From NCBI GenBank assembly GCA_045863395.1, contig BTVJ01000071.1:1-36636 (forward strand): 36,636 bases of DNA, read 5' to 3'. The notes below the pieces were generated by a model. That model was not told the DNA's origin and made no database searches. It saw only the letters and a program-made list of their open reading frames with translations. A program made the translations under genes and the position numbers. Positions 6,511-29,839 of this stretch are shown piece after piece (position 1 is the first letter of the stretch; every line of letters begins with the position of its first letter). This DNA is from Myxococcales bacterium (GTDB lineage Bacteria > Myxococcota_A > UBA9042 > JABWCM01 > BTVJ01).

Positions 6511-9500
6511 TCAGGGCGCGCAGCCCTGGATCACACGGAAATCGTCCACGAAGATGCCGAGGCCCGAGTTCCCCAACCCGTCGTCGCTGTCGAAGGTGAA
6601 GCGGACACGGATCTCCTGCCCAGCCCAGTTGTCCAGAGGGACTGTCACGTGGGTCCATGTCCCATAGGCTGGCGCTTCCTCCCCAAGCTCCGACTTGGCC
6701 CACACGACCGTCTCCTGGTCATCGGCCCCGACGACCGCGATCTCGTAGCGGTCCAGCGAGGGCAGGAAGGGGGACCACGGCTCCACGTCCACCCAGGTCC
6801 ACAGGTCCAGAGTCGCGTCGGCGTCTGCCTTGAGGGTCAGCGGGCCGCTGGTGGCGAGGCCGTAGACCCGCTTGCCCGCGTCGTTGTAGCTCCCCGTAGA
6901 CGGAGCACCGAAGTACAACGCAAACTTCCCGCTGTGGGACTGGGCCGAGCCCACCTGCCACTTCACTGGCGCCGCCGCCGACCCGGTACACTCGGCCCCC
7001 GGGTCACCGCTGGCACACTGGAAAGCATCGACGGTGAAGGCGCCGAGGCTGCCCTGGACGCCCACGTCGAACGTCTCCAGCGCGGCCTCGGACGGGACAC
7101 AGCAGGCGCCCTCGTTGCTCTGCGTCGCCGCGCACTTGCCCGCGGCGCAGTACTCGATGGTGCACGGGTCACCGTCGTCCTGGCAGTCGTTGTCATTGAA
7201 GCAGGCAGGAGCCGTCCCGCAGACGACGGACAGAGACAGCTCGTCGATGAGGGCGCCGAGCCACGCATTGTCGGTCCCGTCGAAGGAGTCGAACTCGAAC
7301 TGGAGGCGCACGGTCTTGCCCTTCACCGCGGACAGGTTGACATCGACGGCCTTCCAATCGCCTGCCGTCGTCCCCTTGACCGCGGAGGAGTCCCACAGCG
7401 GCACGGAGGCTCCGTCGAGCGGGATGGCGGTCAGGGTAAGGCGATCGATGGGGAAGACGTCGAACCACGGGTTCTCATCGAACTCCGTCGAGAGCTTGAG
7501 CCAGAAGGAGAGGACGCTGGTTCCGCCGCTCGGAACTGCAATCTCGGGCGAGATCGCGACGCCCTGGACCGCGCTGCTGCCCGCCGCATACGTCAGGGTC
7601 GCAGGGTTGCCAAAGTAGAGGGCCCCGGCGCCTGCGTGGGCGGTGGACTCGCCCTGGAGGAAGGACCAGCCGACGGCCCCGTCGCCGAAGAAGGCCCACT
7701 CGCCGAAGTCGTTCTCGAAGCCGTCGATGACCGTGGACTTCGCGAAGCAACACGAGGAGACGCCGCTGTCCACGGAGCTGCAGGCGTTGGCGCTGCAGGT
7801 GTCGATGGTGCAGGGGTTGCCGTCATCGCAGTCCGCGGACGTGGCGCAGCACGCCTCGCCGGCAGCGGCCTTGGTGCACAGGCCACCGGTGCAGTCCACG
7901 ACCTCGCACTCGCTGGCCGGCGGGTCGCAGTCCGCCACGGTCTGGCAGATCTTGGCGCCGCACGTGGTCTGGACCAGGAGCTGATCGATGTGGACGCCCC
8001 CATGAGAGTTGCTCGACGAGTCGCCTGCGTCGAAGGTGAACCGCAGCTTCACGGTCTTGCCCTTGAACGCGGTCAGGTTCAGGGTCACCGGCTTGTAGAT
8101 GGGGGCGCCGGGCTTCGCGGTGGTGCCGCCGATGGCGTAGGAGTCCCAGAAGTACGGCGACGCGCTCCCAGGGGCAGCAGTGAAGGGCAGCAGCGCCCCG
8201 GTGGCTGCGTCCAGCACGTCCACGATCAGGATGTCGTAGTAGACCGGATCCTTATAGGCTGGGGGGTCGCCGGCGTTCCACTCGGTGCTCAGGTAGAGCT
8301 GGAAGGAGGCGATGGCGGCCTGGGCAGTCGCGGGGATGGCGATGGGCGCAGACGAGACCGAACCCTTCGGGGTCTTGCCAGGGTCGTCGTAGGTCCCGGT
8401 GGCGTCGTTGCCGAACCACAAGCTCCACGCGCCAGAGAACGGGTTGCTGTTGGATGTGTGCCACTTGGAGGCGCCGGTGCCCGTGGCGCTCCAGCCTCCC
8501 GGGAGCACGGCGGCCTCGAAGCCGGTCTTCGAGAGCTCCGCTGCCTTGCAGCACCCGGCGATGACGGTGTTCGTGCACGCCCCCGCCTTGCAGGCGTCCG
8601 TCGTGCAGTCGTCGCCGTCGTTGCACTCGGCGGCCGTCCCACCCGGACACATCTTGCAGGCCTTGTCGGGCTCCCAGAAGCACACTCCACCGCTCGTGTT
8701 GGACAATTTGGTGCAGCCCTGCTGGACGCAGGCCTCGGCGGACTTGCAGGCGTTGTCGTTGGTGCAGGTCTTGGCGCCGCAGCCGCTGGCGATACGTACG
8801 TTGTCGAGGTAGATGCCCTCGGGGAGCTTGCCACGCAGGAACCAGGACGGGAGGAACTCCTCGCTGCCCGCGAAGCTGAACTGGAGGCGGACGGTCTTGC
8901 CCGCCCACGCGCTCAAGTCCGCGGCGATGAACGCGAACTGTCCGTCGGTGCTCTTGAGGTAGACCGGGGTCCCGGGCCCACCGGGCTCCTCGATGATCAG
9001 CTTCTTGTTCAGCGCCGCGCTGTTCCACAGCACCGACTTGGTGACGCCGTCGTCGACGTAGACGGTGAGGGCGTCGACGAAGGTCTCGAAGCCAGGGTTG
9101 TAGCAGGTGAGCGGGCCTCCGGGCTTGCACTCGGGGAGCGTTGGGTCGTCCAGCGCCTCGGTCTCCGACCAGATGCGCCATGACAGGTGGTACACACCGC
9201 CGGCCGGGAGCACGATGTCGGGGGACTGAAGTGTGCCCGACACGACCTCGTTGTCGGCGAGCAGCTCGTCCGTCGGGACGCAGGACGCGCTGAGCGCGCC
9301 GCCGTAGTAGGTCTTGCAGGCAGCATTGCCGAAGTACCAGGACCAGCTCCCGTCGTAGGCCTTGGTGTTCGTGAGGGACCAGGTGACCGACGCCACGTTG
9401 TCCGTGTCGATGACCGTGAAGCCCTGCGCTGCGCCGCCCTCGAAGCCCGCGTCCAGGTAGCTGCCCGTGTCTTCACAGCAGGCGGGGTCGGACACATAGG

Positions 9501-10038
9501 CGCAGACCCCGCCCTTCGTCGGACAGGAGTCGGTGGTGCAGGCGTTGCCGTCGTTGCAGTCCGCCGCGGTCACGCAGCAGGTCGGGGCTGGGAGCGTCTG
9601 CTTGACGCACTTGCCATCTACACACGCAGCCTCGTCGCAGTCTCCCAGGACGCCGACCTTGCCCGCGCAGTCGGCCGCGGCCTCACACTCGGGCTTCGTG
9701 CCGGCGTCCGTGGACGTGTCCTCGGGCTCGGTGACGTCATTGCCCGCGTCGGGAGAGGGCCCCGTGTCGGTGGCGCCGTCCGGCTCGGTGGTGCCCGTGT
9801 CCTGCTCCGCGTCGTCGCCGGCATCAGGGAGGCCACCCGTGTCCGTGGACGTGTCGTCGACCCCGCTGACGTCGGCGGCGTCAGACTCGCCTGCGTCCTT
9901 GCCGGGGAGGTTACCCAGCCCCCCCGGGCCCTCGTCGTCGGCACAGGCGCCGAGCCCGAGCAGCAGAGCCAACAGGCCGGCAAGGGCCAGCGTTCTCCAG
10001 CCAGGAGAGACAGCGCGGAGTCGAAGCATCCCCGTCAT
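6511..10038 (-). CDS. Large Cys-rich lipoprotein with four repeated MAM/jelly-roll-like beta domains separated by Dictyostelium-type Cys repeats
   Basis: Signal peptide and lipobox LLGLGA-C, then an acidic D/T/G linker. Repeats CNDGNACTTDSC, CNDGDDCTTDAC, CDDGNPCTIDTC, CQDDGDPCTIEYC. Four domains with the pattern FE/FD...W...AxxGxxSLxFG...DL/NLxxxxGKTVRLxFxF...GxxIDxxxV. Start could be 10038 or 10029. Confidence 0.85.
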   Translation of the reverse strand: MTGMLRLRAVSPGWRTLALAGLLALLLGLGACADDEGPGGLGNLPGKDAGESDAADVSGVDDTSTDTGGLPDAGDDAEQDTGTTEPDGATDTGPSPDAGNDVTEPEDTSTDAGTKPECEAAADCAGKVGVLGDCDEAACVDGKCVKQTLPAPTCCVTAADCNDGNACTTDSCPTKGGVCAYVSDPACCEDTGSYLDAGFEGGAAQGFTVIDTDNVASVTWSLTNTKAYDGSWSWYFGNAACKTYYGGALSASCVPTDELLADNEVVSGTLQSPDIVLPAGGVYHLSWRIWSETEALDDPTLPECKPGGPLTCYNPGFETFVDALTVYVDDGVTKSVLWNSAALNKKLIIEEPGGPGTPVYLKSTDGQFAFIAADLSAWAGKTVRLQFSFAGSEEFLPSWFLRGKLPEGIYLDNVRIASGCGAKTCTNDNACKSAEACVQQGCTKLSNTSGGVCFWEPDKACKMCPGGTAAECNDGDDCTTDACKAGACTNTVIAGCCKAAELSKTGFEAAVLPGGWSATGTGASKWHTSNSNPFSGAWSLWFGNDATGTYDDPGKTPKGSVSSAPIAIPATAQAAIASFQLYLSTEWNAGDPPAYKDPVYYDILIVDVLDAATGALLPFTAAPGSASPYFWDSYAIGGTTAKPGAPIYKPVTLNLTAFKGKTVKLRFTFDAGDSSSNSHGGVHIDQLLVQTTCGAKICQTVADCDPPASECEVVDCTGGLCTKAAAGEACCATSADCDDGNPCTIDTCSANACSSVDSGVSSCCFAKSTVIDGFENDFGEWAFFGDGAVGWSFLQGESTAHAGAGALYFGNPATLTYAAGSSAVQGVAISPEIAVPSGGTSVLSFWLKLSTEFDENPWFDVFPIDRLTLTAIPLDGASVPLWDSSAVKGTTAGDWKAVDVNLSAVKGKTVRLQFEFDSFDGTDNAWLGALIDELSLSVVCGTAPACFNDNDCQDDGDPCTIEYCAAGKCAATQSNEGACCVPSEAALETFDVGVQGSLGAFTVDAFQCASGDPGAECTGSAAAPVKWQVGSAQSHSGKFALYFGAPSTGSYNDAGKRVYGLATSGPLTLKADADATLDLWTWVDVEPWSPFLPSLDRYEIAVVGADDQETVVWAKSELGEEAPAYGTWTHVTVPLDNWAGQEIRVRFTFDSDDGLGNSGLGIFVDDFRVIQGCAP

Positions 10039-10131
10039 GGTGCACCATTCTTGATGGAAGTTGTCCGGCGCGCCTCGTGCGACATGTGGGCCGCGCAGGG
10101 TCCGGGCAAGCTCGTTCACGCGACTGGGACA

Positions 10132-24082: not shown

Positions 24083-24110
24083 AATCTAGCAGCGGACCCG
24101 TGGATGTCAA
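24083..24110 (-). promoter_or_regulatory. Putative sigma70 promoter for the ArsA-like ATPase
   Basis: Minus strand TTGACA (24110-24105), 16 nt ending in TGC, TAGATT (24088-24083), about 50 nt upstream of the GTG start. Confidence 0.6.
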
Positions 24111-24133
24111 CCAGCGGGCCCCGGGAGGTCATG

Positions 24134-26047
24134 GTGAGAAGCGTAGGGGTCAGAGCAGCGCTGGCGGTGGCGGCAGCCGCGGGGTGCGCAGGCGATGGGG
24201 CGGGCAGCGCCCCGATGGACGTGGGGGCGCAGGTGGACACCCAGGCGGGAGGCGACTCCCTCGGGCCACAGGACGCAGGCCTGGCCGACGGCGCCGGTGG
24301 CTCCGACGGGTCGGGACAGGACGCCGACGGCTTCCAGCCGCAGCCGTCGGGGGGCGATCCCCTGGTCGAGACCGCCAGGGCGCTTCCCGGCGACCCGATC
24401 TCCGATCTCGTGGTGAGGGGCGACGTGGTCCTGGCCTGCACGCCGTCGGGGGTCGAGGCGCGGGACGCGACCACGCTCGCCCTGACCGGCGCCCTGCCCC
24501 TGCCCGCGGGGTGCCGGCGCCTCGCGGACCTCGGCGGGGCGGCAGCAGTGATCACGAGGGCTGGCGGCCTCGTGCCCCTGAAGGTCGCGGACGGCGCCGT
24601 CACGCAGGACGGCGTGGCCTACGAGCCCGGCCCGACGCTGCTCTCGGCGGCTCAGGTGGGCACGTCGCTGGTGGCCACAGCGGGCGCGCAGGGGCTGGTG
24701 CTCGTCGAGGGAGCCGCCGCCACCCCGCTGTGGGAGGTAGCCGGCGCGCGGGACGTCGCGGCCCGGGGCGGGCTGGCGCTGGTCACCGCCGGCGGGAGCC
24801 TCGTCGTCGTGAGGGTGGAGCCGGGGCCCGTGGAGGGCCTGGCCGTCCTCCCGCTGACGGACGTCTACGGCGAGCCCTCCCGGTCCGCGTGGCGCGTCGA
24901 TGCTTCGGGGCCCCTGGTCGCCGTCACCGGCACCCACGGCGTCGCCCTCGTCGACCTCACCGACCCGTCCAAGCCCACCCAGGTCGGCGTGATCCCCCTG
25001 TCGGGCGCACCGGTGTCCACCACGTCACTGGGGCCGCTGCTCGCGGTGGCGGCCTGGGGCGCCGTCGAGGCGTGGGACGTCTCGGACCCTGCGGCGCCCG
25101 CCCGCGTCGGCGTCGAGGAGGTCCGCCTGCCGCCGCCTGCGCTCCCCGTCGCTCACTTCGCCACGGTGCGGGCCCACGCGGGCGCCCTGGTGGCTGCGGG
25201 GCCGGCTGCGGCCATCCGCCTCACCGTCGACGCGGCGAAGACAGGGCCGGACATCGCGCTGCCGAACGCGAGCGTCCTCTTCGCCGGCATCGAGCCAGGC
25301 TCCCAGGCCAGCGGCGGCTTCCTGCTGTCCAACGACGGCACGGAGCCCCTGGTCATCGGGAGCATCTCCATCGCCGATCCGGCCTTCACCGTGACCATCG
25401 ACCCGGACTTCGCGGGCCCCGTCGAGGACTACGACCCGCGCCCGGCGATGGTGATAGGCCCGGGCGAGAAGGGCTTCATCGACGTCGCGTTCGACGCAGC
25501 CACCGCCGTCGAGGTCGCGTCCACGCTGACCATCCTGTCCAACGACCCGGACGAGGGCGCGCTCGTCGTTCCCGCCGTCGGCAACATGAGGCGCCTCCAG
25601 GCGGGCGACCCGGCGCCTGACGTGATGCTCCCGGCCCTGGACGGCTCGCTGCGGTCCCTCTCCGATCAGAAGGGCAAGGTGGTCTACGTCAAGGTGTTCA
25701 GCGGGTTGTGACCGACCTGCGCACTGGAGTTGCCAGTGATCGAGTCCGACTACCTGCCGACCTGGGGTCCCCAGGGCTTCGCGCCCTTCGTTGTCCACAC
25801 CGGGACCGACCTGGCCTTCGCCTCGTTCCTCGAGGCCGACAAGGGTCTGAGCTTCTCCATGCTCCTGGACGCGGATGGGACGATCTTCGACCGAATGTCA
25901 CAGACAGACCCATTCACGCTCCCTTTCCCGCTCGCTTACCTCGTGGATCGGGCCGGAACCATCCGTCACGTCTACGCGGGCTACGTGGATGGAGAGATCT
26001 CGCCGGCAGCCCTCGCCGCGGACGTCGAGGCGCTGCTCGCCGAGTGA
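24134..26047 (+). CDS. Candidate selenoprotein: lipoprotein with LVIVD-like beta-propeller, ASH/choice-of-anchor-D-like Ig domain and C-terminal thioredoxin-fold (TlpA/AhpC-TSA-like) domain carrying UxxC
   Basis: GGAGG RBS, lipobox AAAG-C. Blades such as GVALVDLTDPSKPTQVG and VEAWDVSDPAAPARVG. Ig-like FLLSNDGTEPLVIGSISI...LTILSNDPDE. Then GDPAPDVMLPALDGSLRSLSDQKGKVVYVKVFSGL-TGA-PTCALELP...FSMLLDADG...FPLAYLVDRAGTIRHVYAG. ORFs 24044..25711 and 25730..26047 are in the same frame, with the TGA at 25709-25711. Confidence 0.85.
25712..25746 (+). promoter_or_regulatory. Putative bacterial SECIS element
   Basis: CACTGG (25722-25727) / loop AGTTG / CCAGTG (25733-25738) forms a perfect stem. The loop begins 16 nt after the UGA and has GU at loop positions 2-3. 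Confidence 0.7.
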
Positions 26048-26195
26048 AGACGGGAGGCTCCTGTGGAGCCCCTGTGGACGCGCGGTGGCAAAGCTGTGGC
26101 TCGAGCCCCACGCCCCATCGTCCAGACTCACGCAGAAACGGTGCCTTCGGGTGCGCGCCGCGCCCCGTGGACAGGTGTGGGCCAAAGCACTAGAT

Positions 26196-26243
26196 TTTCC
26201 ACATCTTGTGTTGCGAGCCCCCAGGATGCACAAGATGTTGACG
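26196..26243 (+). promoter_or_regulatory. Tandem NrdR boxes upstream of nrdJ
   Basis: tttCcAcATcTTGtgt (26196-26211) and gcaCaAgATgTTGacg (26228-26243) resemble acaCwAtATaTwGtgt and are 32 bp apart, directly upstream of an RNR gene. Confidence 0.75.
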
Positions 26244-26401: not shown

Positions 26402-29400
26402 ATGAACCACGACCTGTTCGGAACGCACACGCAGGAGCCTGCACCCCAGGCGCCCACCCCCCAGGCAGAGGCGCGGCCCCACACCACTGCCGGCGACGCC
26501 GCGAAGCCGCAGAAGCCGGCCCGCAAGGCGCGGGGCCGCAAGAAGGGGGTCGAGGGGGGCCTCCGCATCCCCCGGCGCTTCACGCGGGCGGGGGTCAACC
26601 CGCTGGACGAGGTGCGCTACGAGCGCCGCACGTCCCGCATCACCAACCCGGACGGCAGCGTCGTGTTCGAGATGAACGACGCGGAGATCCCCGCCGACTG
26701 GAGCCAGCTCGCCACGGACATCATGGTGTCCAAGTACTTCCGCAAGGCGGGCGTCCCGCAGACGGACGACCGCGGCCAGCTCGCGCGCGACGAGAACGGC
26801 GCGCCGGTGCTCGGCCCCGAGCGCAGCGTGCGCCAGGTCATCGGGCGCCTCGTCGGGTGCTGGCGCCGCTGGGGCGAGGAGCACGGCTACTTCCGCGCGA
26901 CGGAGGACGCCGACGCCTTCGAGGCGGAGCTGGCCTACATGCTGGTCACCCAGATGGCGGCGCCCAACTCGCCCCAGTGGTTCAACACGGGCCTGCACGA
27001 GGCCTACGGCCTGACCGGCCCCGCGCAAGGCCACTACTACGTGGATCCGGCGACGGGCGACGTCCGCGAGAGCACCGACGCCTACACGCACCCCCAGCCC
27101 CACGCCTGCTTCATCCAGTCGGTGCGCGACGACCTGGTCGGCGACGGCGGCATCATGGACCTGTGGACCCGCGAGGCGCGCCTGTTCAAGTACGGCAGCG
27201 GCACGGGGACCAACTTCTCCAACATCCGCGGCGAGGGCGAGCCCCTGTCCGGCGGTGGGGTCTCCAGCGGCCTGATGAGCTTCTTGAAGATCGGCGACCG
27301 GGCGGCCGCGGCGATCAAGTCCGGCGGCACCACGCGCCGCGCGGCCAAGATGGTCTGCCTCGACCTGGATCACCCGGACATCGTCGAGTTCGTGAACTGG
27401 AAGGTGAAGGAAGAGAAGAAGGTCGCCGCGCTCATCGAGGCCGGCTACTCCCACGACTTCAACGGAGACGCCTACCAGACCGTCAGCGGCCAGAACTCCA
27501 ACAACTCGGTGCGCGTCCCCGCCCGCTTCCTGGAGCGGGTCGACGCGAAGGGCACCTGGGACCTCACGCGGCGCACCGACGGCAAGGTGGCGAAGACCCT
27601 GGACGCGAACGACCTCTGGCAGCAGATCTGCCACGCGGCCTGGGCGTGCGCGGACCCGGGGGTCCAGTTCGACGACACGATCAACGACTGGCACACCTGC
27701 CCGGGCGACGGCCGCATCCGCGCGTCCAACCCGTGCAGCGAGTACATGTTCCTCGACGACACGGCCTGCAACCTGGCGAGCATCAACCTGCTGCGCTTCT
27801 TCGACGACGCGTCGGCGCGCTTCGACCTGGACGGCCTGGCCCACGCCTGCCGCCTGTGGACCGTCGTGCTCGAGATCAGCGTGCTGATGGCCCAGTACCC
27901 GTCGCCGACCATCGCGCGCATGTCCTACGAGTACCGGACCCTCGGGCTCGGCTACGCCAACCTGGGCACCGTGCTCATGCGCATGGGGATCCCCTACGAC
28001 AGCGGCAAGGCGCGCGCCATCTCTGGCGCCGTGACGGCAGTGATGTGCGGCGAGTCCTACGCGGCGAGCGCCGAGCTGGCCGCCGAGCTCGGGCCCTTCC
28101 CGCGCTTCGAGGCGAACCGGGAGGCGATGCTCCGCGTGATCCGCAACCACCGGCGCGCCGCCTGGAATGCGCCCCCGTCGGACTACGAGGGGTTGTCCAT
28201 CCCCCCAGTGGGCGTCGACCCGGGGCTCTGCCCGAGGGACCTGCTCGCGGCGGCGCGAGCCGCATGGGACCGGGCGCTGGCGCTGGGCGAGGAGCACGGC
28301 TACCGCAACGCCCAGACCACGGTCATCGCGCCGACTGGCACCATCGGCCTCCTGATGGACTGCGACACGACCGGGGTCGAGCCGGACTTCGCGCTGGTCA
28401 AGTTCAAGAAGCTGGCAGGCGGAGGCTACTTCAAGATCATCAACAAGAGCGTGGGGCCGGCGCTGCACAACCTGGGCTACTCGGAGAGCCAGGTCGAGGA
28501 CATCGTGCGGTACGTGCGAGGGTCGCTGACCCTGGACGGGGCGCCCCACGTCAACCGGGAGGCGCTTCTGTCGAGGGGGCTCCTGCCGAGCGACGTGGCG
28601 CGCATCGAGGCCGCCCTGCCGACGGTCTTCGAGCTGGGCTTCGCCTTCGCCCCACAGGCGCTGGGCGAGGCGGCCCTGAAGCGCCTCGGCCTGGACGCGG
28701 GGTGCCGCGACGTGCTCTCCGCGCTGGGGTTCACGGCGGAGCAGGTCGAGGAGGCCAACGAGCACGTGTGCGGCACGCTGACCATCGAGGGCGCGCCGCA
28801 CCTGCGGCAGGAGCACGTCGCGGTGTTCGACTGCGCCAACCGCTGCGGCACGAAGGGCAAGCGGTTCATCCACCACACGGGCCACATCCGCATGATGGCG
28901 GCGGCGCAGCCCTTCATCTCCGGGGCGATCAGCAAGACGATCAACATGCCCAACGAGGTGACGGAGGAGGACATCGCGGACGCCTACTGGATGAGCTGGA
29001 AGCTCGGCCTCAAGGCGACGGCGCTGTACCGGGACGGCAGCAAGAAGAGCCAGCCCCTGTCCGCCAAGGGCGACAAGAAGGAGAAGGCGGAGAAGGCCCC
29101 TGAGGAGGCCCCGAAGGCGGCGGCCGCTCCCGTCGCCGAGGCGCCGGCCTTCACGCCCGCCCCTGTCGCGGCCCCCGCGCCCTTCCGCCGGCCCATGCCG
29201 AAGAAGCGGCGCGGCTTCACCCAGGAGACCAAGGTCGGCGGGCAGAAGGTCTACGTGCGCACGGGCGAGTACGACGATGGGGCGCTCGGAGAGATCTTCA
29301 TCGACATGCACAAGGAGGGCGCCGCCTTCCGCAGCATGATGAACTGCTTCGCCATCGCCGTGTCCAAGGGGCTCCAGTACGGCGTACCGCTCGGTGAGTT

Positions 29401-29839
29401 CGTCGACACCTTCACCTTCACCCGCTTCGAGCCGCAAGGCCGCGTCGATCACCCGAACATCAAGTTCGCGACCTCCATCGTGGACTACGTGTTCCGGCTG
29501 CTCGGCATGGAGTACCTGGGCCGGACGGACATCGTGCAGGTCCCGCCGGAGGTGGTCGAGGAGGAGGCGCTCGCCCACCACGAGACCGTCCCGAGCGTGG
29601 TGCCCGCGGCGCCGAAGCCGGCCCCGAACGGCAACGGCAAGGCCAACGGCAATGGCAAGGCGAAGGCCGCCGGCCACGAGGGCGCGGTGCACGACCCGGC
29701 GCCCGCCTTCCAGCTCAGCGACCACCTGAGCACGATGATGGGCGACGCGCCCTTCTGCGACGTCTGCGGGCACATCACCGTGCGAAATGGCGCCTGCTAC
29801 AAGTGCCTCAACTGCGGCAACTCCATGGGGTGCTCATAG
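26402..29839 (+). CDS. nrdJ: Class II (adenosylcobalamin-dependent) ribonucleotide reductase with fused TSCPD domain and C-terminal Zn-ribbon
   Basis: [76 protein letters not shown]-type [18 protein letters not shown], and C-terminal CDVCG...[14 protein letters not shown]. Confidence 0.98.

Follow-up and report, generated by a model that had tools for sequence, protein, structure and literature searches.

An in-frame TGA in a predicted Myxococcales lipoprotein gene very likely encodes selenocysteine in a protein of propeller, immunoglobulin-like and thioredoxin domains

When a long bacterial reading frame is interrupted by a single TGA, does that codon end the protein or does it place a selenocysteine (Sec)? 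The question is raised by a gene in a 36,636-nucleotide stretch of DNA from a Myxococcales bacterium (contig BTVJ01000071.1 of assembly GCA_045863395.1; hereafter the window, meaning the whole stretch that was analysed). A preliminary description of the window, made from the letters alone, had proposed that two open reading frames called there are really one, and this is what we find: positions 24134-26047 of the forward strand form a single frame of 637 codons, with TGA 25709-25711 as its sole internal stop. The gene, we conclude, very likely encodes one 637-residue selenoprotein. In the protein the TGA falls at residue 526, in the context VFSGL-U-PTCALELP (U denoting Sec), where it takes the first position of a thioredoxin-type U-P-T-C site. 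That it occupies the first CxxC position of a TlpA/AhpC-TSA-like domain, as had been suggested, agrees with profile matches to the Pfam families AhpC-TSA (PF00578, residues 491-612, E 2.2e-13, 50.7 bits against a cut-off of 26) and Redoxin (PF08534, residues 489-620, E 9.9e-13, 48.6 against 26.6 bits).

How is this codon treated in related genes? We searched the genome and 60 relatives, obtained matches in 46 genomes, and examined 25 returned loci together with 20 regions picked for long or TGA-bearing matches, leaving out one weak TGA match (in genome G021). Of the 46 hits aligned at the codon, 34 have TGA and 11 have Cys; the remaining hit, which has Thr, is peroxiredoxin-like. All 34 TGA hits read U-x-x-C and their frames stay open for a further 103-177 codons, homologs ending 103-177 residues past the Sec codon with TAA, TAG or TGA. 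The TGA members come from 15 genomes, every one of which has selA, and none of the 13 genomes (out of 61) that lack a selA match gave a TGA hit.

One might still argue that translation really ends at the TGA, or that this codon is a sequencing error, and that the product is a 525-residue protein consisting of the propeller and immunoglobulin (Ig)-like domains, the rest being a decaying or separately started frame. Databases do annotate the truncated product, a TTG at 25730 opens a frame of 105 residues, and codon adaptation is somewhat lower after the UGA (0.67) than before it (0.78). However, the codon is conserved in a family whose median protein identity is about 26%, and in family members it is replaced only by Cys; a stop at 526 would cut the fold ahead of its catalytic site, and the frame from TTG would be without both active-site residues. 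A covarying hairpin follows the TGA, and the TGA itself is identical in contigs of three independent public runs from three studies; the contigs of a fourth run do not reach it. Verification in raw reads had been proposed; the codon held, but these are contigs and not raw reads. We consider a stop or an error very improbable.

The hairpin had been described as a perfect stem, CACTGG-AGTTG-CCAGTG, with its loop 16 nt after the UGA, and it is present as described: arms at 25722-25727 and 25733-25738 enclose a loop at 25728-25732, giving a stem of 6 bp, a loop of 5 nt with G at position 2, a UGA-to-loop distance of 16 nt and a minimum free energy (MFE) of -12.8 kcal/mol. It satisfies every constraint of the bacterial selenocysteine insertion sequence (SECIS) model set out in the part of PMC13188914 available to us, namely a loop of 3-9 nt, a stem of 4-16 bp, G within the first two loop positions, a distance of 16-37 nt from the UGA and an MFE of at most -7.5. 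A perfect 6-bp stem in this exact register follows 4 of the 1910 frame-ending TGA codons among the long coding-like frames of the genome, and is found at 0.38% of random genome positions. Folding energy alone is unremarkable (z -1.81, with 11 of 200 shuffles as good, over 39 nt; z -0.78 over 52 nt), and the case for the hairpin therefore rests on homologs.

Taken over the 34 TGA genes, with six pairs in each, 98% of the 204 cells are paired, compared with 24.5-49.5% when the register is slid; five of the six pairs vary on both sides (covariation 0.766 versus 0.19 when shuffled), and RNAalifold, unaided, returns the same single helix. Note that shuffle tests are inflated by relatedness. More weight is carried by the contrast with Cys genes, where the perfect stem occurs in 33 of 34 TGA genes and in none of 11 Cys-coded homologs, and by base pairs lying outside a nucleotide pattern with which we collected 82 further genes (see below): two such pairs are kept in 77 and 82 of the 82 hits, the next pair outward in 24. 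Codon choice points the same way as the preliminary description had it, with the stem written in codons that are rare in this genome. GCA, TTG and CCA make up 6.1%, 3.8% and 6.9% of codons for their amino acids, the six stem codons are the 10th rarest of 632 windows in the gene, and among the pattern hits a T-ending codon stands at the stem in 81 of 82 despite a median G+C content at third codon positions of 0.885.

Does the organism have the means to read UGA as Sec? The genome (8.77 Mb, 70.9% G+C, 97% complete) holds all four components that the preliminary description wished to see confirmed, each scoring over its cut-off: tRNA-Sec (78.4 bits), selA (567), selB (316) and selD (387). An alternative would be that UGA is read as Cys or Trp, through a changed genetic code or through a SECIS-dependent system that inserts Cys, such as exists in some deltaproteobacteria; homologs do, after all, accept Cys here. 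Elsewhere in the genome TGA is the stop codon used most, ending 1911 of 2668 long coding-like frames, and the code is therefore not changed; moreover, ARAGORN finds one tRNA with a TCA anticodon, which it calls SeC, and a single selB match exceeds the cut-off. This alternative strikes us as hardly credible. The placement of Sec near residue 526 of a protein of about 637 residues is thus supported by 34 TGA homologs, a covarying hairpin and the Sec genes. We saw none of the signs that the preliminary description had listed as speaking against Sec: a genome without the machinery, TGC, TGT or TGG in place of the codon, homologs with a residue other than Cys there, or pseudogene-like decay downstream.

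Other candidate Sec genes were seen in the same genome. SelD (locus L018, G000:C21) is itself a selenoprotein, with an in-frame TGA in G-U-A-A-K and a hairpin of 8 bp, its loop beginning 15 nt past the UGA. A second exported UxxC thioredoxin-fold candidate (L193, G000:C161:3309-4181, forward strand; TGA at C161:3846) reads W-U-G-F-C and has a signal-like N-terminus, a dockerin-like repeat pair recognised by eye and a hairpin after the TGA; its nearest NCBIfam model is NF053656 ('TUGYCR motif'), at 64.7 of 100 bits. A third (L194, G000:C2:289547-290449, forward strand; TGA at C2:290114) is a lipoprotein with a Bcp/PrxQ-type peroxiredoxin domain, the motif P-x-x-x-T-x-G-U and a strong hairpin after the TGA, and is likely, judging from these features, an exported Sec peroxiredoxin. 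A looser scan returned 67 rows that were mostly spurious, among them C20:39749, which we rejected as the ordinary stop of an ArsA-like gene.

The family reaches well beyond the relatives of this bacterium. A 40-nt pattern that encodes only Phe, TGA, Pro and Cys plus part of the stem matched at least 124 stretches in GTDB genomes; the 80 loci listed correspond to 82 distinct genes, a few of which duplicate loci of the relatives set. Assigned with profiles from our own alignment, 74 of the 82 combine propeller, Ig and thioredoxin domains, three have propeller and thioredoxin, three Ig and thioredoxin, and two, both cut by a contig end, thioredoxin only. By record title many belong to Myxococcota and others to Acidobacteriota, Chloroflexota and Gemmatimonadota; titles such as Enterobacterales or Rickettsiales also occur and may be mislabelled. 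All five named-record genomes that we tested contain selA and tRNA-Sec, and named species with a member include Paraliomyxa miuraensis SMH-27-4 and Enhygromyxa salina. A metagenome scan gave four loci, of which one (L196) is a full member with TGA. Two other searches were set aside: a profile search of 1.84 billion representatives was dominated by LVIVD/Ig repeat giants, with one full-length hit in the top 150, and therefore yields no family size, and a single-protein search of the genome contigs gave 214 pattern hits, none of them confirmed.

Database records of these genes commonly stop at the codon in question. Besides the window's own record, seven of eight database relatives end exactly ahead of codon 526. 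With the P. miuraensis member as query, 720 of 8000 scored proteins pass E 1e-20; among the top 120 relatives, 94 end right ahead of the codon and 26 are full length, of which 23 carry CPxC and three were not parsed. The P. miuraensis protein itself is filed in RefSeq as WP_266214752.1, a 542-residue form ending at the UGA and labelled 'alkyl hydroperoxide reductase', and the records of E. salina are likewise of truncated length.

Several genomes carry more than one copy. Genome G033 has seven TGA members and one Cys member, and natural Cys versions stand alongside Sec versions in two genomes; at four loci (L089, L134, L145 and L049) two family genes, both with TGA, lie a few kb apart. In a tree of 71 thioredoxin domains the full-length Cys members L025 and L053 each fall inside a well-supported TGA group, apart from the ordinary Cys TlpA domains. 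This suggests separate Sec-to-Cys reversions, as read from a tree of sequences whose root was not tested.

What kind of protein is it? Its features are collected in Table 1. The preliminary description had spoken of an exported lipoprotein, and by inspection and pattern residues 1-18 have the basic N-terminus, hydrophobic stretch and lipobox Cys of a predicted bacterial lipoprotein signal; a lipobox-like pattern recurs in 53 of 67 complete members. The propeller, Ig-like and thioredoxin layout proposed at the same time is reproduced by AlphaFold models and by the pattern genes counted above. For the window protein (34-row alignment) the model has a mean predicted local distance difference test score (pLDDT) of 88.1 and a predicted template modelling score (pTM) of 0.85, low confidence being limited to residues 1-63, and shows a propeller whose seven blades (about 75-366) have four strands each, then an Ig sandwich (about 370-485), with a ResA-like thioredoxin domain taking up the remainder; the model of the P. 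miuraensis member is arranged alike (pLDDT 88.4, pTM 0.87).

Table 1. Features of the selenoprotein gene and its predicted product; positions are those of the window.
Feature	Position	Strand	Basis
Whole gene, 637 residues with Sec at 526	24134-26047	+	GTG start; terminal TGA 26045-26047
Putative ribosome-binding site GGAGG	24124-24128	+	Seen in sequence, 5 nt ahead of GTG
Predicted signal peptide of a lipoprotein, closing with A-A-G-C; the lipid anchor would be Cys18 (24185-24187)	24134-24187	+	Sequence; homolog Cys column
Disordered Gly/Asp/Ala-rich tether, residues 19-72	24188-24349	+	pLDDT <50 for residues 14-63
Predicted seven-bladed beta-propeller, residues 75-366, degenerate LVIVD type	24356-25231	+	Model pLDDT mostly >90
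Propeller cysteines C102 (24437-24439) and C127 (24512-24514)	24437-24514	+	Kept in 81/95 and 82/95 family rows
Ig-like domain, choice-of-anchor D / ASH / HYDIN type, residues 370-485	25241-25588	+	Weak profile matches and model
TlpA/ResA-type thioredoxin domain, residues 489-637	25598-26044	+	U526-P-T-C529, E532, F598-P599 cis-Pro-type loop
In-frame TGA, putative selenocysteine codon U526	25709-25711	+	Aligned homologs and independent runs
Bacterial SECIS hairpin CACTGG / AGTTG / CCAGTG	25722-25738	+	Pairing and covariation; RNAalifold

Foldseek superposes the thioredoxin domain on ResA (2h1b) with a TM-score of 0.88 and a root-mean-square deviation (rmsd) of 2.0. By sequence, the solved structures that match best are those of a thioredoxin-like protein from Bacteroides (2ls5, E 1e-29) and of ResA (E 2e-26). 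The domain has the TlpA-type fold with a CxxC-type site and, in the model, a cis-Pro-type loop, so named from its sequence. Over 95 family rows (median identity 26%) F522, C529 and P599 are invariant, E532 is kept in 92 and W308 in 89; many of these rows were chosen by an active-site pattern, so that the active-site columns are partly fixed by construction. The Glu three residues past the second Cys (E532) we take to be the counterpart of E80 in ResA.

For the propeller, a fold search returns WDR61 (Z 30.1, rmsd 2.2 over 265 residues), yet many unrelated propellers are about as similar (Z 26-30), and the fold therefore gives no function; NHLRC2 and SOQ1 are not among the 50 rows listed, an absence that carries no weight. 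In the propeller of the window's own clade, most of the charged and His residues that the main subfamilies conserve have disappeared, and this speaks for binding or scaffolding more than for catalysis. C102 and C127 probably form a disulfide, to go by strand order in the model. Profile support for LVIVD and the Ig-like domain is below cut-off in the window protein (one LVIVD repeat; PF22544 at 370-474, E 8e-4; NF012200, E 1.4e-4) and above it elsewhere: both LVIVD and ASH in the P. miuraensis member, LVIVD at E 5.6e-23 in protein P0173, and ASH in P0006 and P0173. The Ig domain has no conserved Cys in the 95 rows. In some homologs (L050, L052, L054 and L055) Cys-rich repeats replace the tether, and several members carry N-terminal repeats of this kind with 43-51 Cys.

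How might such a protein work? On comparative grounds it is nearly certain that SelB would bind the hairpin and that tRNA-Sec would place Sec at 526. The chain would then be exported, cleaved by signal peptidase II and lipidated at Cys18, leaving the domains on a flexible tether. In TlpA, ResA and CcmG, once the first Cys has attacked a substrate disulfide, the second breaks the resulting mixed bond, and DsbD or CcdA then returns the site to its reduced state. By analogy, the Sec526 selenolate would attack, Cys529 would resolve, and DsbD or CcdA would bring electrons from the cytoplasm to re-reduce the Sec526/Cys529 site; the genome has three candidate donors, a full-length DsbD, a protein joining DsbD_TM to thioredoxin, and a CcdA-sized protein. 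The propeller might select or hold the substrate rather than catalyse, with the Ig domain as a spacer. We lean towards this picture, a lipid-anchored propeller, Ig and thioredoxin protein acting as a ResA/TlpA-type disulfide reductase outside the cytoplasm. As its substrate, exported Cys-rich proteins are our leading guess, and Cys-rich surface proteins, the targets offered by the preliminary description, are plausible. Frames rich in Cys (at least 20 Cys and 4% Cys) number 235 of 3614 long coding-like frames in the genome. An example lies in the window itself, on the reverse strand at 6511-10119: a protein of 1202 residues that combines Cys repeats of the Dictyostelium type with an InhA-like MAM domain.

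Two other functions can be imagined for the same selenoprotein. It might protect the envelope as a peroxide or sulfoxide reductase, with Sec526 itself reactive or passing electrons to C102/C127, much as SOQ1's thioredoxin domain supplies its C-terminal domain: the domain falls in AhpC-TSA, the thioredoxin domain of SOQ1 matches our family profile (E 1.1e-8), SOQ1 is reported, in the portion of the source available, to reduce methionine sulfoxide (10.1101/2024.11.01.621559), and about 85% of rows keep C102 and C127. Against this, the site is UxxC with an invariant second Cys, whereas peroxiredoxins have TxxU and also score far lower than ResA, the Ig domain contributes no conserved Cys, and the genome has a separate exported TxxU peroxiredoxin candidate in L194; we think this function unlikely. 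The other, an isomerase or oxidase that folds Cys-rich surface proteins, comes close to what the preliminary description had in mind. The abundance of Cys-rich frames, the Cys-rich N-terminal repeats of several members and the presence of up to eight members in one genome, which suggests a diversity of substrates, would fit; but the closest solved relatives belong to the reductive branch (ResA, DsbE/CcmG, TlpA) and not to DsbA, DsbC or PDI, neighbour clustering of the fetched loci showed nothing that ties the family genetically to Cys-rich genes, and members also occur in Chloroflexota and Acidobacteriota. This too we hold to be improbable. A broader proposal, about which we are equally doubtful, is a paralog-rich, selenium-dependent surface redox machine of Myxococcota and other phyla, in which the three domains would form a rigid arm, the propeller would capture specific disulfide-rich targets, whether Cys-rich surface proteins of the same cell or proteins of foreign origin, and Sec would edit their disulfides, possibly with a relay through the propeller cysteines. 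If it were true, selenium supply would control surface-protein function in these organisms.

Several observations weigh against a Sec-dependent disulfide reductase. Both the selenoprotein status and the reductase role rest on sequence and models. The co-occurrence with selA is a weak test: 48 of 61 genomes have selA, kin do not count as independent cases, and with the window protein as query no TGA member turned up in 33 of the genomes that do have selA. Codon adaptation, as noted, declines after the UGA. The Pfam assignment AhpC-TSA also holds peroxidases, and the Trp that precedes CxxC in many TlpA proteins is replaced, by Leu here and mostly by Phe in the family. If the cell has two membranes and the protein faces outwards from the outer one, direct contact with DsbD would be impossible. 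Finally, no conserved neighbour indicating a substrate or electron donor was found across the fetched loci.

The gene stands alone, between a divergent ArsA-like ATPase gene and a class II ribonucleotide reductase gene, an order found again, among the fetched loci, only in L023 and L107. An in-frame ATG at 24131 immediately precedes the GTG start. The promoter scan found no sigma-70-like promoter for the selenoprotein gene; in the gap of about 100 bp ahead of it lies a sigma-70-like promoter with an extended -10 (TTGACA-16-TAGATT, 24083-24110, reverse strand) that points at the ArsA-like gene. Contigs of RNA libraries cover the gene but equally its neighbours. Upstream of the ribonucleotide reductase gene (26402-29839) three elements at 26188-26240 on the forward strand, CACTAGATTTTC, CACATCTTGTG and CACAAGATGTTG, overlap a sigma-70-like site at 26168-26196 and resemble what we take to be the NrdR box consensus; this is a resemblance only. 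A second patch of rare codons (25889-25915, residues 586-594: CGA ATG TCA CAG ACA GAC CCA) lies in a low-confidence loop of the model ahead of the cis-Pro-type motif. Elsewhere in the family, a conserved lipoprotein-like frame, a possible partner, stands near the gene in five loci of different phyla (L091, L100, L121, L123 and L126), directly downstream in L091. Most large clusters in the neighbour analysis were antisense frames of the gene itself and were discarded.

Reading the codon as Sec puts right a mistake that recurs in annotation. In RefSeq and in metagenome gene calls these genes end just ahead of the catalytic residue, and what should be listed as a redox enzyme appears under the name of a hypothetical or LVIVD protein. 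The list of bacterial selenoproteins gains a large, multi-copy architecture that is predicted to be exported. The clean, covarying SECIS should be useful for studying SelB recognition outside E. coli, and the two genomes with Cys and Sec versions side by side allow a direct comparison of the two residues in an extracytoplasmic enzyme. The chemistry is not new, UxxC thioredoxin-fold selenoproteins being well known.

How, then, does the protein compare with known systems? The preliminary description did not recognise the architecture. That stands for the three-domain fusion, of which we found no description in the papers covered, but not for the Sec domain, whose class is already catalogued. A 2026 catalogue lists UxxC selenoproteins for PF00578 (Prx-like thiol:disulfide oxidoreductase), PF08534 (Redoxin family, the 'Prx-like 3' of an earlier survey described below) and cd02966 (thiol-disulfide isomerase-like) in its 119-entry table (PMC13188914, available part); the word 'propeller' does not occur there. 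They share with our protein the Pfam domains, UxxC and a coding-region SECIS, but the entries there are for the domain only, whereas here a propeller, an Ig domain and a lipoprotein signal are added. Neither that table nor the fusion section of the 2008 Global Ocean Sampling (GOS) survey (PMC2398784, available part), which names other fusions, names one with a propeller, LVIVD or choice-of-anchor D. Two GOS reads that this survey files under 'Prx-like 3' contain YFATWUPVC; judged by eye, they look closely similar to the L032 thioredoxin domain and to the end of P0010. By this comparison, lists of selenoproteins have probably included the domain from 2008 onwards, though not the remainder of the protein. 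No mention of a propeller or LVIVD was found in the accessible text of PMC9312934, deep-Sep (PMC12013277) or BSepDB (PMC13326102); a BSepDB genome list includes P. miuraensis, and the BSepDB database or the deep-Sep supplements may hold members under a generic name. A literature search for selenoproteins with LVIVD, or in myxobacteria as lipoproteins, which covered few subscription journals, found nothing on the family, and one for LVIVD with thioredoxin found only unrelated work. No NCBIfam model (June 2026) reaches its cut-off for the family protein.

With TlpA, ResA and CcmG (DsbE) the protein shares the fold, the xPxC site, the downstream Glu, the cis-Pro-type loop and the membrane tether, but it has Sec where they have their first Cys, it is longer by about 410 residues (propeller plus Ig), and no link to ccm or res genes was seen at the fetched loci; scores stay below the NCBIfam cut-offs for ResA (NF002854, 46 of 170 bits), DsbE (TIGR00385, 18 of 123) and TlpA (NF047696, 17 of 230). 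The PxxxTxxC/U peroxidatic motif of peroxiredoxins is not present, the site being FSGL-UPTC. The DUF1573 selenoprotein (PF07610) has a UGC motif in the available part of PMC13188914, as opposed to UxxC in a thioredoxin domain here, and the match of our Ig domain to PF07610 is weak and stays under the cut-off. The same modules make up surface proteins with LVIVD repeats and choice-of-anchor D / ASH domains, among them giants of up to 7,635 residues that dominated the profile search; for 149 of the 150 hits listed there, the best-matching stretch ends ahead of or at the start of the thioredoxin domain. NHLRC2, which has a cleft between its first two domains (PMC6107167, available part), and SOQ1 likewise join a thioredoxin-like domain, a propeller and a third domain; theirs, however, is an N-terminal thioredoxin-like domain followed by NHL, where we find the order propeller, Ig, thioredoxin, with LVIVD repeats and Sec, and no NHL Pfam match in P0001 or P0173. 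They are architectural analogues, relatives only via the thioredoxin domain. The combination of propeller, Ig and lipoprotein signal is thus the part for which we found no description; by its domain the protein is a member of the catalogued UxxC Redoxin/Prx-like class.

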